A stretch of 60,940 nucleotides of DNA, filler included, from Armatimonadota bacterium (lineage in GTDB: Bacteria > Armatimonadota > Fimbriimonadia > Fimbriimonadales > Fimbriimonadaceae): NCBI GenBank assembly GCA_031400935.1. It is 3 parts of 3 records of this genome, joined end to end, with 100 filler letters (N's around TTAATTAATTAA, not from the genome) between each part and the next. Parts side by side here need not be neighbours in the genome. Positions count along the whole stretch, not along the records: positions 47,595 to 60,940 come from JANNQV010000066.1; 2 more parts are not named here. One strand, given 5' to 3'. The position numbers were made by a program. Below, in pieces: positions 48,001-54,000 of this stretch (position 1 is the first letter of the stretch; every line of letters begins with the position of its first letter).

Positions 48001-51000
48001 TTGTGGAGAGCACACCGGCATTTTGGACCCTTGAGCGAATCATTACCGAAAAGCTCATTTTTGCCGTTGCCAAACAAAAAGCGGTATATCCTTCTCCGAC
48101 CGAGATTCAAAATGAGGTTGCGCTCAGAACAGCAGATGTTTCGGCTGTAGAGATTTGGACGGCAAGCGGCCAAACCAAGGCCGAGCTTGAGTATCAGATA
48201 TTGATTCAACTTTGTCAGTTCAAAATAGCAACAGCAGGGATAAATGTCACCGATTTGGAAGTCGAGAAGTTCTTCAAAGACTATCCCAGCATGTTCACGA
48301 TTCCAAAGCGGCACAAGTTAAGGGTCATTTCAGTGGGAGACGATGCCAAGAAAGCCCAAGTTGATTTTCAGTTGCAAAGTGGAAAATCGTTTGTCGAAAT
48401 CGCAAAGACGATGAGTGATGACTTAACGAAAGCTAGCGGTGGCGACTTTGGCGCAGTGGATATCACCAGGGTAAACGAAACGATGCGCAAGGCAATTGAG
48501 GTCACAAAAGTTGGCGGCGTAACAGCTTGGCTTGACGCGGGACAACAAAAATTGAAGTTTTTAGTAGAGGAAATCCTGCCGGCGCAATTGCAAAAACTCG
48601 ATGACAAGCTCAAAAAATCAATTCGTCGCCGAATGATGCTGGATCGGGGCAAGGTCAAGAATGACGTGCCGAAAATGATGCTTGAAGCCCGCAACGCTAT
48701 GAAAATTGACATCAGGTCAAAGGAACTTTCTTCAGAATACGACAGAATCATGAAGAGGCCGACACCGCCGTTGCCAAGCACGATTAAACCGTAAAACCAG
48801 TGGCTATGGGTTCAAATGGAGCATCGGAAATTGGAAAGCTTATCGAAGTTGTAGATAGGCTTTTAGGGCCAGGCGGTTGCCCCTGGGATCAGGAACAAAC
48901 CCACGAATCGCTCAAAAAACATCTTTTAGAAGAGGTTTATGAAGTCTTCGATGCCATAGATTCTGGTGACAAGGATCGCCTTTGCAACGAACTTGGTGAC
49001 CTGCTTCTTCAACCCATCATGCACGCCCAAATGCAAGCTAGAGATGGCGGCTTTTCAATAGAAGATGTTGCAAGCGGAATTACCGAGAAGCTGATTCGGC
49101 GACATCCGCACGTTTTTGGCGATGTTGAAGTTGCCGATGCAAATGAAGTCCTTCAAAATTGGGATCGGATCAAACAATCTGAAAATTCATCAAAAAACCC
49201 TCCATCTATCCTTGACGGAGTACCTAAGACCCTTCCTTCCCTTCATGGCGCCTTTGAAGTCAGCAAACGAGCAGCAAGAGTTGGTTTCGAATGGCCCAAC
49301 CAAGTTGAGGTTTTCGAGAAGTTAGACGAAGAATTATCGGAGCTGAACCAAGCTCTTGCATCAAAGGACAAAGAGCAAATCGAAGCTGAAATCGGCGACG
49401 TTCTTTTCACAATTGTAAATATCGCAAGGTGGAACGAGATCGAACCAGAAGAAGCAATGAGGAAAATGCTCGGGCGATTTACATCTCGCTTCAACCAAAT
49501 GGAGGCTGATGCGAAAAAGCCACTTCGTGAACTATCAGCGGAAGAATGGGACGAGCTTTGGAATACGGCGAAGGCGAATGAAAGAGTTTAGGAAAATAAG
49601 CGCGGAATTCAGAAACAGCAATCCACCATCTCCACCATAATTGAAACAATAATGAAATTGCGAAAATACAAATCAAAGAAAGGTCTTCGAACGACCTTCC
49701 TGGCATCACTGATTGCACTGGCATTGCCGACTTTCGCATGGTTTGAAACCGGCCATATGGTCGTCGCCGAAATTGCGCTACGCCATTTAGAACCAAACAC
49801 TAGGAAACAGGCCCTAGAACTTCTTCAAGAAGCCTATCTTGACGCTCGCACGAACGACTTCCGAACCGCTTCCGTTTGGGCAGACGACCACAAGTCCTCC
49901 GCCGATGCCCACTGGCACTACATAAATTGGTTCTTCAAGGTTGATGGCAGCGATGGTTCTGGCAAGCCTCGCGAAGAAAATGTTGTGTGGGCTATCGAAA
50001 AATTTAGGGCACTTCTATCAGACACTGCAAGCACAAAAGGGCAAAGAGCACAAGCTATGGTTTGGCTGTTGCACTTTGTTGGCGATATTCATCAGCCGAT
50101 GCACTCAGTCGCACGAGAATCTGCCGCTCACCCAACTGGAGATCGCGGTGGAAACGAATTCTCAATCACTTCCCCCGATTCAATCACTCCTCCTGTCCGA
50201 AACCTTCACTTTCTGTGGGATTCTGGTGGCGGTTATTTTCCCAAAGTTGTACGCCCGCTTAACGATGTCGGGCAGCGAACAATTGCTCGCCTGGCCGACG
50301 AATGTGAAAAATCGTTTTCGTGGGACAAAGCCCAAACGGAACTTCATACTTCAGATTCAAATCGTTGGGCAAAGGAGAGCTTTGCTTTAGCGAAAAGCGA
50401 AGCGTACGATCTGAAAGAAGGCGAAGTCCCATCTGAGGCCTATCTCAAGAATTGCCGGGCGATTTCAATGCGAAGAGTGACTCTTGCAGGTTATCGGCTA
50501 GCGGCAGTTCTCAATAAAGCGCTTTAGCGCTCGATACTCCCAGCTTTTATCGGAAACGGTGGCGAATCGTATTTGAGGTTCAGTTTCAGGTTGCTTTCAT
50601 CGGACTTGCACGAAGCCCAGCCGCCGCCGCCTCAACCGTAAGTCATGGAGCCAGATGCGTTCAAATTGCCCTTCGAATCAAACAATTCATAACCAATTGG
50701 AATCCGTTTGCCGCTTGCATAGATTGAAAGTCCCGAACGGTTCTCACCTGTGATTTCCATGGAAACTTGAACTACGCCCTTCTTTGCCATCAAACCAGAA
50801 TTGACAACTATTTCTGAACTGATATCTAGCCTTGTTTCCTTTCCGGCGTCAACGCGAAACGACTTGATTTCTGGCCCCATTGTCGAAATGTGCCAAACCT
50901 TGCCATCCTGTGCTTTTCTAATAATTCGATAGCCTCGAACCGTGTAGTTCCCTGCTTTTAGGAATCGCTTTGAAGATTTTGCATCTTCCCAAGACAATCG

Positions 51001-54000
51001 AAAAACTTTGCCGTCTTCACTAGCAACCAAAATTGCACCATTGGCAAAATCAGTTCGAACCGAACCGAGTCCCGCTCCAGGTTTTGAAAGGGCCAATTCA
51101 GGGATACCCTCTTGAATTGTTTGGAAGTAAGTAATCAGGGCCTCACGGGCCCCCTTTTGCGTATCGCTTCAGGCAGTCTCCCGAACTTGGCCGAGCCAAG
51201 CTCTTTCGGTTTCAAACCGAGTGTCTGGGGGCACATGGCAAGAAGAGCATTTCTTCTTGAACATTTCGCCTGCGTTTGCGAACACCTCGCTACTAGGGGC
51301 ATGATGTTGGGTTGTAGGGGCGGAAAAACCAACGAGGGTAATGCCCGCAATTCCTAAAATCGCAAATCCCAAATGAGCTCGCATTCCTAAGATTAGCACG
51401 TTGGTCAACGCAATGTCTCGCTTCAATTGCATTTCTGCAAATTTGGAATTTGGTCGGAGATGCAATTCGTCTACAATTCTCTTAGAATCTCTTATGTTGC
51501 GATCCACATTCATTTTCATCCCTGGCGTCGGCCCCACAACCGAACGCGCTCTCTGGAAGCAAGGATTTACCGATTGGACACTCCTGCGAGAGAATTTGAA
51601 AGAAGCGAAGCTTGGAACAGCAAGTATTGACGACGCTAAAAAGTCCATCGACACAGCTGAAAAGATGCTCAGCGAGGGAAATCACCAGTATTTCGCCAAG
51701 AAGTTGGGAATCGCCGAAGCCTGGCGGGCTTGGCCGCATTTCAAGGATTCGATGGTCTATCTCGACATCGAAACCGACGGCGGAATGCGAGGCGAATCGG
51801 TCACGATGATCGGCCTCTATGATGGCAAAGAATTCAAAGCGCTGATTAAAGACGACAGCATCGAGGAATTTAAGGATCTAATAACACACTACAGTATGAT
51901 CGTCACGTTTTTTGGGACAGGATTCGACCTGCCGATGCTTCAAAAACGGTTTTGGGGAATGCAGTTCGACCAAATCCACCTTGACCTTTGCCCGACTCTC
52001 AAACGCCTTGGCTATCGCGGCGGGCTGAAAAAAATCGAGCGTCAGGTCGGAATTTCTCGCGCGGAGGAAACCGACGGTCTTTCAGGCATGGACGCGATTC
52101 ACCTTTGGAATCGGCATTTACGGGGAGATGAATCTGCGCTACCGACTTTAGTCGCTTACAATCGTGAAGACGTAGTGAATCTTGAAAAACTTTCTGAATT
52201 GGCGTATTCGAAACTTGAGGCGACGGTCCGCGGGAGTTTGGGAGTGTTGTGTTAGGCGATCCCCCTTTCCATGCTTGGGAGGAGGAGTCAAGGCATACTA
52301 GCCGGAGGTCGAAGTCACCGGGTTCTGTAGTAGTATCAACCCCGCAACCTGGAAGGTTTGCAGCAGAATTTGGCTACGACAGAGTGCATCTCTTAAGCTA
52401 AATTCACTCTGATTTCGATTTGTTCCGAGCTTTGGTGCTGGCATCCCTCCAGGATCGTTGAATGCACACTAGAAATCGTGCCCCTGCTCCCCTCAGTTAT
52501 CTCGTAAGTTCTCCCAAGCCGCCCGAAAGCCCACAGCATCAACCTTGCTGGATGCAATTCCATTTGTGTTTTCCAAAATTGAAATGGCAATGTGGATGGG
52601 CATCACGGAGGAACCTTCATCAACAGCTTGCAGATGCGCTTTGGTGAGAAATTCGGAAAGGGATGGTTCGATTGTTTCAATCCCTTCTGATGCCATCGCC
52701 AACATTCGAAATTCGATGGAAGACATGATCTCAAGTCTTTCTTAGTTCAATTCGGCCAATACTCTTCCGATTTCGAAATCTTGAGAGGCGAGAAGGCTAA
52801 GGAAAAGGTGATCCAGAACAAACCTCCCCTGGTGAAGCATCATGAACTGGGCGGCATCGGCTAAGGCTCCCAGTATCCTGTTACTTTCTGATTTTGCAAC
52901 GGCTTTCCTCACCATCTTCGTCAAGGATTCTGCTGCCTCATCAGAGACTGAACTAGCGGCATATGGAAATCGTTCCTCCCCATCCGTCAATTTCAATACT
53001 GCTTTTCGAGCTTCTTCCAATGTAGCGCCCATTTTTGCCAAAACTCTTCCAGCCAGCCCGTCTCCTTCGCGAATCAATCCCAGCAGCAGATGCTCAGTGC
53101 CAATGAAGTTGTGGTTCAGATTTCGGGCCTCATCATACGCCAGGTCATTAACTCGCTTGGCGCGAGGCGTAAGCGTCATGTCCTGACTTGGTCCAATATC
53201 TCCTCTAGGAAGTTGTTTCTCTAATTCAGCTCGCACTCTGGACAGCGAGAGGCCTAGCTCCCTCAAAATACTGGCGGCGGTCGAATCTTCTTCTCGCACT
53301 AAACCTAGAAGCAAATGCTCTGTGGAGACATAACCCTCTCCAAAATTCTGCGCCTCTTCCTGAGCGTAGAAAACAACTTTCCGAGCACGTTCTGTAAATC
53401 TTTGCCACATCCCATATTTAGAGTTCGGCGGATAGAATCAATTGTCCTTCAACTACACGTGACATGAACTGCCATTTGAAACGACTTCATGCGAAAGTGG
53501 GGGGAGCTCAATGCAAAAAGAAACGGCCCCACGAAAGTCGTGGGGCCGTTTTGAAGGAAGTGAAAAACAGCTTAAACTGTCGGTGGAATTCTTCGTCCGC
53601 CCTGAGCCTCGTTAGGATCAGCCTTGAACGGCTCTCCCAACATGCCCTTTAGGGTTGCTTTCTGAGAATCAGTGAGAACCTTTCCTAATTCCTCGTCAAG
53701 AATCTTATTGTTCTTGTCTCTAAGTTCGCCAGATTGCTCTCGCTCGATTTCGCCGTTTCGAACTTTCTCCTGGATCGCTTGGTTTGCTGCCTGTTGTTTT
53801 TCTTGAAGAGACTTGATTGAAGCCTTTTGTGCGTCTGACAGAGCAAGTGCCTTCTGAAGATCAACGTCGTTCATAACGGCACGATTGCCAGCTAGTTGCC
53901 AGCCAATCTGCTTGAGTCGTTTGGATTGCTCTGGTGTTAAAACCTTGTCAATTTTCTCTTGCTGCTTTTTCTGGAAAGCTTGGAATTGCGCCATCATGGC

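Follow-up and report, generated by a model that had tools for sequence, protein, structure and literature searches.

A previously unannotated family of predicted two-selenocysteine proteins with a c-type haem attachment motif

MccSep (GSU2936/2937) of Geobacter sulfurreducens has been described as a multihaem cytochrome c selenoprotein that acts as a polysulfide reductase, and in which Sec325 from an Ig-like domain reaches a His/Cys-ligated haem (PMC13510729). A native Sec-ligated cytochrome P450 (ncCYP subfamily M), in which Sec replaces the Cys ligand of its relatives, was found as an ORF truncated at a TGA, according to the account in PMC11703216. The gene analyzed here lies in a window of 60,940 nucleotides, which is the whole stretch of DNA under study; the source sample is a freshwater sediment metagenome. 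As MccSep is portrayed in PMC13510729, it shares with the predicted product of this gene a periplasmic location, c-type haem, database entries in which an in-frame UGA splits the gene, a C-terminal Ig-like domain with Sec on one of its Gly-containing loops (D-G-U-P in MccSep, Y-G-U-G-G-G here) and Cys-type relatives. However, MccSep has five CxxCH motifs and one Sec, whereas a single CxxCH and two Sec are predicted here, and its catalytic haem has a Cys distal ligand, whereas the putative ligand position would here itself be Sec in this branch. The same source places MccSep in Desulfobacterota and Nitrospirota and links it to sulfur respiration, while the present family belongs to Planctomycetota and is linked to export genes for copper and other heavy metals. 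With ncCYP subfamily M the window protein would share the condition of a natural haem protein carrying Sec where relatives have Cys, but the P450 described in PMC11703216 is cytoplasmic, has its own fold and a b-type haem, and uses Sec as the proximal and only protein ligand, whereas the window protein would have a c-type haem with His as the proximal ligand and Sec at most as the distal one.

Translation confirmed the proposal of the genome-wide survey's note that positions 51432 to 50632 form one minus-strand frame, which is interrupted by a TGA at 51169-51171 (residue 88) and encodes a Cys-x-x-Cys-His motif. This motif, which the note put at residues 61-65 with Sec 23 residues further on, is real but occupies residues 62-66, and Sec88 lies 22 residues past His66. 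The product had also been taken to be 266 aa long with a stop at 50632-50634; that codon is a second TGA, beyond which the frame remains open for 35 codons on the minus strand up to the TAA at 50524-50526, giving 302 aa. An alternative ATG at 51382-51384 (Met17) corresponds to the start position in most orthologs, and the gene is flanked by an S1/P1 nuclease and an RNase_H_2 gene. The features are as follows:

50524..51432, minus strand: whole gene, 302 codons plus the TAA stop at 50524-50526, start ATG at 51430-51432; based on translation with TGA read as U and on ortholog alignments A1 and A2
51322..51432, minus strand: N-terminal hydrophobic segment, residues 1-37, a putative Sec-type signal peptide or signal anchor; AF2 helix 6-25 with low pLDDT
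51103..51300, minus strand: small cytochrome-c-like helical domain, about residues 45-110; AF2 helices 48-61, 74-85 and 93-105, with Sec88 in the loop preceding the last helix
51235..51249, minus strand: c-type haem attachment motif Cys62-Ser-Ser-Cys65-His66, at the end of an amphipathic helix (F58-x3-C-x2-C-H)
51169..51171, minus strand: UGA for Sec88 (site 1), motif T-(A/S/T)-U-(S/T)-x-T, at a constant 22 residues past the His of the haem motif
51137..51153, minus strand: SECIS hairpin 1, 6-bp stem pairing 51148-51153 with 51137-51142, loop CGUGA at 51143-51147; the apical loop begins 21 nt past the UGA
50527..51084, minus strand: two Ig-like beta-sandwich domains, about residues 117-206 and 205-302; AF2 pLDDT mostly >90; in the second domain, a Gly-rich hairpin joining strands 257-265 and 270-276 contains Sec267
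50632..50634, minus strand: UGA for Sec267 (site 2), motif Y-G-U-G-G-G
50601..50619, minus strand: SECIS hairpin 2, 7-bp stem pairing 50613-50619 with 50601-50607, loop CGUGC at 50608-50612; the apical loop begins 19 nt past the UGA
50527..50631, minus strand: C-terminal tail, residues 268-302, made only upon Sec267 insertion; it finishes the second beta-sandwich and carries a P-P-F motif at 291-293

The membrane anchor attributed to the protein is not established. Most ortholog N-termini look like typical signal peptides (M-R/K, a hydrophobic run, then A-x-A/G-Q), and the corresponding segment of the window protein is a putative signal peptide or signal anchor.

Retention of the UGA in orthologs was borne out, and it extends to both sites. 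Where a single Sec had been claimed, all seven matches among 175 family genomes (G000 included) carry two TGAs, identically placed, and their alignments span the full length, reaching residues 292-301. Both TGAs are likewise kept in 9 of 9 full-length matches among 228 order genomes and in 13 named Planctomycetota MAGs. In the alignment of 22 full-length orthologs, with identity down to 26%, U at each site and the flanking residues are invariant, and the spacing from His66 to U shows zero indels. The tail that follows site 2 differs between G000 and G127 (86% identical) by eight synonymous and three non-synonymous codon changes (1/3/9 by codon position), and conservation of P291, P292 and F293 reaches 90% or more across the 22 orthologs; this region is under purifying selection. 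Since the tail past 50632-50634 is conserved, we interpret the product as a 302-aa protein with two Sec.

The survey's note had regarded the family as rare and devoid of Cys homologs. Neither view held: a profile search returned 910 cluster representatives at E<=1e-3 (131 at E<=1e-30), and Cys was found at site 1 in all 24 database representatives covering that site and also in loci L212 and L228. A metagenome pattern search yielded 108 matches, 89 of them family members, and among the 56 metagenome copies typable at site 1 there were 54 with U and two with C. By contrast, none of the nine database representatives covering site 2 has Cys there. This is a large, previously unannotated family of Planctomycetota. 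Its invariant core consists of site 1 (Sec88, Cys in other branches) and CxxCH, while site 2 (Sec267) is either Sec or absent along with its YGUGGG loop.

If the TGAs were true stops, the frame would be either a decayed gene or a set of two or three small, separate ones. Gene callers do split it in this way: 140 of the 150 best representatives terminate exactly at the (Y/F/H/W)(G/A) preceding site 2, and 125 of them also begin downstream of site 1. Folded singly, the window's own hairpins did not exceed shuffled sequence in stability (z -1.16 and +1.31), so that the support for them is comparative. That support is nevertheless present at both sites. The GC-rich hairpin previously reported downstream of the TGA is found after residue 88; 95.5% of its cells are paired, 10 of them compensatory, against 38-62% paired in slid controls. 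For hairpin 2, 90.9% of cells are paired, with 21 compensatory cells across five of seven pairs (slid controls 24-64%). In neither case was the covariation score reached by any of 500 shuffles. Both hairpins fit the bacterial SECIS rule as it is given in PMC13188914, which asks for a distance of 16-37 nt to the apical loop and for G, then either G or U, at the loop's first two positions. A contig from a sister sample, however, carries a G->A change at an otherwise invariant loop base of SECIS 1, which also gives R96H. The genome encodes tRNA-Sec, selA, selB and a Sec-containing selD. That TGA is otherwise an ordinary stop in this genome (it ends 236 of the 795 ORFs with 400 codons or more) likewise speaks for Sec decoding. 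True stops are therefore hardly credible in view of the invariance of both TGAs and their flanks down to 26% identity, the covariation of both hairpins, the homologs with Cys at site 1, the purifying selection on the frame either side of each TGA, the complete Sec machinery and a model in which the last 35 codons are predicted to finish a confidently folded domain. The comparative data give good grounds to predict that both UGAs are decoded as Sec via SelB, each by its own coding-sequence SECIS hairpin just downstream. The survey's central claim, a previously unannotated selenoprotein with a c-type haem motif upstream of Sec, holds on the strength of the conserved UGAs, covarying hairpins, site-1 Cys homologs and Sec machinery.

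The CxxCH motif is invariant in the 22 orthologs and in the 24 representatives covering it. A profile of the N-terminal domain searched against the PDB gave, among the best 60 matches listed, c-type cytochromes throughout (best E 2.3e-4), the match spanning only the helix and CxxCH and not the rest of the domain. The likeness to class I c-type cytochromes (CcoP domains, QcrC, cytochrome c555/c551, mitochondrial cytochrome c) lies in the N-terminal amphipathic helix ending in F-x3-C-x2-C-H, in a small helical domain of ~65 residues and in a candidate distal ligand in the loop before the last helix. However, the window protein passes no Pfam or NCBIfam cytochrome model; no haem-protein family model passed, the best being Cytochrom_C550 in Pfam (E 0.17) and TorC in NCBIfam (E 0.005, far below the cut-off). 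It further differs in being fused to two beta-sandwich domains and in having no conserved Met/His distal ligand, with Sec (or Cys) 22 residues past the His instead; neither an invariant Met nor a second invariant His occurs among the 22 aligned sequences. In the AF2 model (pLDDT 87.3, pTM 0.79) the tail strands 270-276, 283-287 and 295-299 have pLDDT >90. Structural comparison with VIA-align matched the N-terminal domain weakly to CcoP and NirS c-domains (Z 5.0-5.2), and the beta-sandwich domains gave generic beta-sandwich matches only (Z 5-7). Three Cytochrom_C_asm genes above the cut-off are present in the genome. From the motif and the profile match to the helix-CxxCH signature, we infer that the protein binds haem.

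CxxC is also a classical metal-binding motif. The periplasmic copper-handling proteins of cop/cus clusters (CusF, CopC/PcoC and CopG; CopC has a beta-sandwich fold) use Met, His or Cys rather than Sec and carry no haem motif. The present family resembles them in its predicted beta-sandwich fold and in consisting of small secreted proteins, whose gene stands beside or between a copper-type ATPase and a CusCBA-like pump in L155, L156 and L175; Pfam, NCBIfam and structural comparison gave no sequence or specific fold match between them. Counting heavy-metal (mostly copper-type) P-type ATPases, secreted YHS/TRASH proteins and Cus-like pumps, a metal gene lies 0-652 nt away in 19 of 111 family loci, of which four supplied queries and so match by construction, and L214 and L223 look like one sequence entered twice. 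The corresponding figure is 16 of 57 for loci of at least 4 kb and 0 of 126 for non-family control loci, drawn mostly from other phyla. The other 92 family loci have no metal neighbour, many being too short for any neighbour. The window's own locus is among those without metal genes, and the only P1B-like ATPase of the genome is on another contig. In L155, L156 and L175 the ATPase scores above the copper-ATPase cut-off TIGR01511, and in L156 the RND protein scores above that for CusA/CzcA, while L231 has an ATPase of the Zn/Cd type. As for the YHS/TRASH neighbours, they are secreted repeat proteins rich in Cys, and most have His-rich tails.

A haem-free protein could be imagined on this basis, in which Cys62, Cys65, His66, Sec88 and Sec267 would jointly bind a soft metal (Cu(I), Ag(I) or Hg(II)). 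It would serve as a periplasmic selenolate metallochaperone or metal sponge, trading metal with TRASH/YHS proteins, CopA or a Cus pump. The directly adjacent metal genes, the double meaning of CxxC and the failure of every cytochrome family model agree with this, as does the account in PMC13188914 of several selenoproteins acting in heavy-metal resistance, with Sec a possible metal ligand. Yet the motif always comes as the full helix-F-x3-C-x2-C-H, for which the best PDB matches listed were c-type cytochromes only; the His right after the second Cys is invariant, the protein is exported in a genome with haem-attachment genes, and branches without site 2 still have CxxCH and Cys. We therefore hold the haem-free version to be doubtful.

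Redox genes adjoin the family in single loci, namely a multihaem cytochrome in L162, a sulfite-reductase/TusA protein in L194 and a NiFeSe hydrogenase in L166. These neighbours and the freshwater sediment source would suit a haem-plus-chalcogen enzyme acting on sulfur or selenium compounds (polysulfide, thiosulfate/tetrathionate, selenite), with the metal neighbourhood secondary. Such an enzyme would be the one-haem counterpart of MccSep, or of cytochromes with His/Cys ligation (TsdA and SoxAX, for example), and the window protein would have the active-site parts reported for MccSep in PMC13510729: haem c, a conserved Cys/Sec capable of ligating it, and a C-terminal Ig-like domain bearing Sec on a Gly-containing loop. 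That likeness rests on a list of parts and not on sequence relationship, however, and one haem against five leaves no electron wire, while sulfur-metabolism neighbours are sporadic as opposed to metal genes in 19 loci; we consider this enzyme rather unlikely. More improbable still is a periplasmic peroxidase or thiol-oxidoreductase-like protein, in which the peroxidatic or attacking role would fall to Sec88 and the resolving role to Sec267 (2-Cys logic), haem being just an electron relay. The Sec/Cys exchange at site 1 and the optional chalcogen at site 2 do resemble peroxidatic/resolving pairs, and L113 has a Redoxin/AhpC-TSA protein beside the gene, L098 a pyridine-nucleotide disulfide oxidoreductase. 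Nonetheless, these are only two of the 21 ortholog loci scanned, neither the model nor the structural matches contain a thioredoxin fold, and site 2, never Cys in the nine representatives covering it, would be unusual for a resolving residue.

The reading that we favour, at somewhat better than even chances, is that of a secreted (periplasmic or membrane-tethered) 302-aa monohaem c-type-cytochrome-like protein with two Sec, involved in redox or metal handling; its haem binding, Sec-haem geometry and copper role are all proposed. Haem would be attached at Cys62 and Cys65 by system II maturation proteins, and His66 would be its proximal ligand. Because Sec88 is predicted in the loop before the last helix, the place of the distal ligand in class I cytochromes, and neither a conserved Met nor a second His is available, it may be the distal ligand or lie within the distal pocket. 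Sec267 could provide a second redox or metal-binding chalcogen (a Se-Se or Se-S couple), by analogy with Sec325 of MccSep, in a putative joint centre. Since about one-sixth of the loci adjoin copper-type or other heavy-metal P1B ATPases, Cus-like RND pumps or secreted multi-TRASH/YHS proteins, the likeliest role would be to capture Cu(I) or some other thiophilic metal in the periplasm, or to handle its redox state there, with the haem serving as an electron conduit.

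The gene lies on contig C66, which begins at window position 47595, and its frame encodes 302 residues with two internal TGA codons, referred to here as sites 1 and 2:

ATG start codon, 51430-51432, minus strand
Internal TGA (site 1, residue 88), 51169-51171, minus strand
Second TGA (site 2, residue 267), 50632-50634, minus strand
TAA stop codon, 50524-50526, minus strand

The genome-wide survey's note had described a 266-residue product, read from 51432 to 50632, with a single selenocysteine. The in-frame TGA at site 1 and the CxxCH motif were both recovered on the minus strand of that frame. 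The motif had been numbered one residue too early: it is Cys62-Ser-Ser-Cys65-His66, encoded in the same frame, and Sec88 follows His66 by 22 residues. The codon formerly taken as the terminal stop is itself a TGA, past which the frame stays open for 35 further codons until the TAA. The resulting C-terminal tail overlaps the convergent nuclease gene by 4 nt only. Compared with the 86%-identical ortholog of genome G127, the 36 codons from Sec267 on carry eight synonymous and three non-synonymous changes, with one, three and nine differences at the first, second and third codon positions, respectively. Purifying selection acts before, between and after both UGA codons, and the tail is predicted to be translated.

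A divergent ORF of the RNase_H_2 superfamily (window 51401-52255, plus strand), when read from its TTG start, overlaps the first 32 nt of the selenoprotein gene; given this overlap, one of the two genes probably begins further downstream than called. Most orthologs start at the position of Met17 in the selenoprotein. The runs of N at window positions 21462-21561 and 47495-47594 separate the joined contigs, of which there are at least three, and features flanking them are not genomic neighbours.

Both UGA codons are retained in every full-length match among the family and order genomes. Among 175 genomes of the same family, seven match (the present genome included), all aligned to residues 292-301 of the 302 and all with TGA at both places. 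At the level of the order, 18 of 228 genomes match at E ≤ 0.01, nine of them over the full length, and each of these nine carries both TGAs. The other nine matches (loci L026-L034) are weak. Six of them score against the N-domain profile and have only the haem motif in common with the family; they were rejected as members, the F-x3-C-x2-C-H stretch alone being shared with planctomycete haem-motif proteins. A search with the DNA pattern Y-G-TGA-G-G-G, using one genome per species, yielded at least 13 members, all titled Planctomycetota or Planctomycetaceae. On metagenome contigs, a longer DNA pattern retrieved 108 loci, of which hmmsearch identified 89 as family members; site 1 is TGA in 54 of these and Cys in two, and could not be typed in 33, which are mostly truncated. 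In an alignment of 22 full-length orthologs (26-87% identity to the window protein), both UGAs are invariant (22/22), the spacing between His66 and Sec88 shows no indel, and the invariant residues are C62, C65, H66, T86, U88, R96, L99, P111, Y163, R169, G234, Y265, G266, U267, G268-270 and A273. We consider it almost certain that the gene encodes a genuine selenoprotein with two selenocysteines.

Each UGA is followed by a candidate SECIS element:

Hairpin 1: stem of 6 bp, apical loop CGUGN, starting 21 nt after the UGA of site 1
Hairpin 2: stem of 7 bp, apical loop CG(G/U)(U/G)N, starting 19 nt after the UGA of site 2

Across the alignment, 95.5% of cells are paired in hairpin 1, with a compensatory change in 10 cells, and 90.9% in hairpin 2, with a compensatory change in 21 cells distributed over five of its seven pairs. 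The covariation score was reached by 0 of 500 shuffles for each hairpin, and pairing in slid controls amounted to 38-62% of cells for hairpin 1 and 24-64% for hairpin 2. Folded alone, the window's hairpins did not differ significantly in stability from shuffles (z -1.16 and +1.31); the support for the SECIS elements is therefore comparative. According to a 2026 review (PMC13188914), the apical loop of a bacterial SECIS lies 16-37 nt past the UGA and has G, then G or U, at its first two positions, a rule that both hairpins follow. The same study yielded, from a second sample, a contig that is identical to the window over 50450-51550 apart from two positions and keeps both TGAs; its C>T at 51146 alters an otherwise invariant G of the hairpin 1 loop and changes the invariant Arg96 to His, and its G>A at 51317 replaces Pro39 by Leu within the signal-peptide region.

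The genome (2.97 Mb in 67 contigs, 95.6% complete) holds a tRNA-Sec on contig C20 as well as SelA, SelB and SelD, each above its curated cut-off. TGA ends 236 of the 795 ORFs that reach 400 codons and four of 12 neighbouring ORFs, and is not reassigned in this genome. Judged from its sequence, the gene appears to show the features that define selenoprotein genes in bacteria. The selD gene (C15:155711-156616, minus strand) likewise encodes a selenoprotein, through a single in-frame TGA (context ...SCSG-U-ASKLG). The hairpins downstream in selD bear no resemblance to the two hairpins of the window gene, so that no genome-specific SECIS consensus can be derived. In many orthologs, such as L016 of genome G068 and most of the named loci from metagenome-assembled genomes (e.g., L050, L065 and L100), the tail, too, ends at a TGA, there a true stop. 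Such orthologs hold three TGAs, two for Sec and one for termination, and therefore constitute a natural test set for distinguishing Sec-UGA from stop-UGA.

The survey's note had also cautioned that the family was rare and lacked Cys homologs, and neither reservation holds. A profile of the 22 orthologs searched against 1.84 billion cluster representatives matched 910 at E ≤ 1e-3, 373 at E ≤ 1e-10 and 131 at E ≤ 1e-30. The best 150 of the 910 were assigned to classes by the state of the two sites:

Site states among the best 150 of the 910 matched cluster representatives
125 of 150: fragment beginning after site 1 and terminating at ...YG directly before site 2
15 of 150: Cys at site 1, terminating at ...YG before site 2
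8 of 150: Cys at site 1, with site 2 read through as S (3), R, N, G, P or E and the YGUGGG motif lost
1 of 150: fragment with Thr at site 2
1 of 150: Cys at site 1, with site 2 outside the coverage

Within these best 150, all 24 representatives that cover the N-domain have CxxCH together with Cys at site 1, and none of the nine that cover site 2 has Cys there, the residue being S, R, N, G, P, E or T. Likewise, of the 215 stretches returned by a genome-contig scan with Cys codons in the site 2 motif, not one is related. Among the metagenome copies, L212 and L228 have Cys at site 1 and Sec at site 2 at the DNA level, with a conserved tail beyond the TGA. The classes and these copies therefore define three family forms, namely Sec at both sites, Cys at site 1 with Sec at site 2, and Cys at site 1 without site 2. 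In the ESM Atlas, the nearest matches of the middle piece between the TGAs, as translated with table 11, were nameless Planctomycetota clusters of 633 and 278 members.

An AlphaFold2 (AF2) model built on the ortholog alignment (mean pLDDT 87.3, pTM 0.79) has the following parts:

Residues 6-25: N-terminal helix, low confidence
Residues 48-61, 74-85 and 93-105: helices of a small helical domain
Residues about 117-206 and 205-302: two beta-sandwich domains

In this model, Sec88 is placed on the loop preceding the last helix of the helical domain, and Sec267 on a Gly-rich turn that joins strands 257-265 and 270-276. Searches of PDB structures (Foldseek and VIA-align) returned generic Ig-like or beta-sandwich matches (Z 5-7) and, for residues 33-109, weak matches (Z 5.0-5.2) to CcoP and NirS, in their cytochrome c domains. 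No specific fold relative was found by these searches of the PDB, which does not show the fold to be new.

We then considered whether the protein is a cytochrome. Export signals are present, with a typical signal peptide at the start of most orthologs, and three genes of the genome score above the cut-off for Cytochrom_C_asm (PF01578); the invariant CxxCH, export signals and haem-attachment genes expected of a c-type cytochrome are thus all found. The profile of the 66-residue N-domain matched 151 PDB sequences at E ≤ 10 (best E 2.3e-4). The best 60 of these 151 are all c-type cytochromes, aligned on an amphipathic helix plus F-x3-C-x2-C-H, and the match is limited to the helix and CxxCH, ending directly past the motif. 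The only cytochrome match in Pfam was Cytochrom_C550 (E 0.17, 12 bits against a cut-off of 27), and the planctomycete cytochrome C domain PSCyt1 (PF07635) gave no Pfam match even at E ≤ 10. NCBIfam cytochrome models, TorC among them, scored far under their cut-offs (E 0.005-0.17). The seven family-level members matched none of the curated NCBIfam selenoprotein models at E ≤ 1, giving noise-level cytochrome and unrelated matches only. Taken at the level of sequence, we consider it probable that haem c is bound. No conserved Met or second His that could serve as distal ligand is invariant, or nearly so, in the 22 orthologs, where Sec88, Sec267, Tyr163 and Tyr265 are the only invariant nucleophiles. 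The haem, if bound, is either five-coordinate or ligated by an invariant Sec or Tyr. Sec88, replaced by Cys in relatives, occupies what we take to be the place of the distal ligand of class I cytochromes.

The order of genes at the window locus is a SurA-like PPIase, MazG, an S1/P1 nuclease (convergent), the selenoprotein gene, RNase_H_2 (divergent), Clp_N, an LTXXQ protein and a secretin/pilus cluster, and these neighbours give no functional hint. The LTXXQ-motif (CpxP/Spy/ZraP-like) periplasmic stress protein (window 53572-54267, minus strand), 2 kb from the gene, is the sole hint of envelope or metal stress at this locus. A type II secretion or type IV pilus-like cluster follows (window 54264-60940, minus strand) and continues past the window end; it comprises an 827-aa secretin and PilO-like, PilN-like, T2SSK-like and T2SSJ-like proteins.

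Loci elsewhere place the family beside metal genes. On one strand in G066, an RND pump is followed by an ATPase of the copper type that carries YHS and HMBD domains, by the gene, 12 nt downstream of the ATPase, and by an MFS transporter; in G011 a P1B ATPase, the gene, an OEP, a CusB-like HlyD_D23 protein and a CusA/CzcA RND pump follow one another in this order, again on one strand. All 111 family loci were screened by tblastn with ten metal-gene and PSCyt1 neighbour proteins as queries, and a Pfam scan of neighbours at metagenome loci covered 116 of 197 ORFs. A metal-type gene is present in 19 of the 111 loci (16 of the 19 belong to the 57 loci with a length of 4 kb or more), counts in which related genomes are not independent, four positive loci were query sources, and two (L214 and L223) are apparently one sequence filed twice. 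The nearest metal-type gene lies 0-652 nt from the family gene in every positive locus, and no metal-type neighbour was found in the remaining 92. As a control, 126 non-family loci (64 of at least 4 kb) retrieved with the same DNA patterns, mostly from other phyla, gave no metal-gene match. P1B ATPases occur in 12 loci; those of L155, L156 and L175 pass the copper-ATPase cut-off TIGR01511, that of L231 is of the Cd/Zn type, and the RND protein of L156 passes TIGR00914. In seven loci, the immediate same-strand neighbour is a secreted YHS/TRASH repeat protein with a signal peptide, one to four C...CC..C repeats and, in most, a His-rich tail. The gene is thus recurrently adjacent to genes for heavy-metal (mostly copper-type) export and metal binding.

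Some family loci showed further arrangements. In the apparently identical copies L214 and L223, which adjoin a copper-type ATPase, the C-terminal half is out of frame with the N-terminal half that bears the haem motif; an error of assembly, a frameshift or decay of the copy could account for this. A BBP2 porin upstream and a 216-223 aa protein downstream, the latter assigned to no family, form a synteny shared by L071, L200 and L230, and in some of these a corrinoid methyltransferase set (URO-D-like, B12-binding and RACo-like genes) comes next. PSCyt1 proteins at L100:2771-4584 and L157:10411-11502, one of them fused to DUF2231, adjoin the gene and YHS/TRASH proteins and could be electron partners.

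In MccSep (GSU2936/2937), a five-haem selenoprotein of Geobacter sulfurreducens, haem c and selenocysteine were recently (2026) demonstrated to make up a joint catalytic centre within one protein, and MccSep is the closest precedent for the mechanism proposed below (PMC13510729). Its parts, a His/Cys-type haem site and a Sec from an Ig-like domain, have candidate counterparts in the modelled window protein. MccSep has five CxxCH motifs and the window protein has one, and the latter is therefore not a member of that family. Among the covered entries of the family table in the 2026 review, the selenoproteins with a haem motif are ExtKL, the GSU2204 family and an octahaem family, with nothing like the window family (PMC13188914). 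In the literature searched (main texts, mostly from journals without subscription), the family is not described and no selenoprotein family from Planctomycetota was found. We regard this as a new family of SECIS-dependent bacterial selenoproteins within the recently opened haem-c selenoprotein class.

Two SelB-dependent Sec insertions are predicted, and CxxCH with Sec or Cys at +22 forms the invariant core; the second Sec, on a loop of the Ig-like domain, is optional. In the mechanism that we propose, haem c would be attached to the protein and Sec88 would be its distal ligand or lie within the distal pocket. Sec267 would swing onto the Sec88/haem site to give either a Se-Se or Se-S couple or else a site for a soft metal, and the haem would carry electrons to or from that site. 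The protein would thereby handle Cu(I), or a metal like it, in the periplasm. A role in the homeostasis of copper or another soft metal is a reasonable possibility, if short of probable, and the placement of Sec88 at the haem with Sec267 as its partner is a tentative proposal. It is unlikely, though worth stating, that this is the first natural His/Sec-ligated c-type cytochrome, with a haem-diselenide centre completed by an Ig-domain Sec that, in the periplasm of Planctomycetota, oxidises, reduces or traps Cu(I) and further thiophilic metals. If true, the His/Sec haem-diselenide centre would be a selenium-dependent arm of copper resistance without an oxygen-dependent multicopper oxidase. Since the candidate ligand is itself Sec and natural Cys variants exist, what a selenolate does to a c-type haem can be tested directly.

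In public databases the family is present as hundreds of clusters annotated as 'hypothetical', with fragments of 130-190 aa that break off at the two UGAs. Recognition of the family mends these fragments and extends the selenoproteome of bacteria by a family with two Sec. The recurrent adjacency to P1B ATPases, Cus-like pumps and TRASH/YHS proteins suggests that periplasmic metal homeostasis has a selenium-dependent component which has gone unrecognised.
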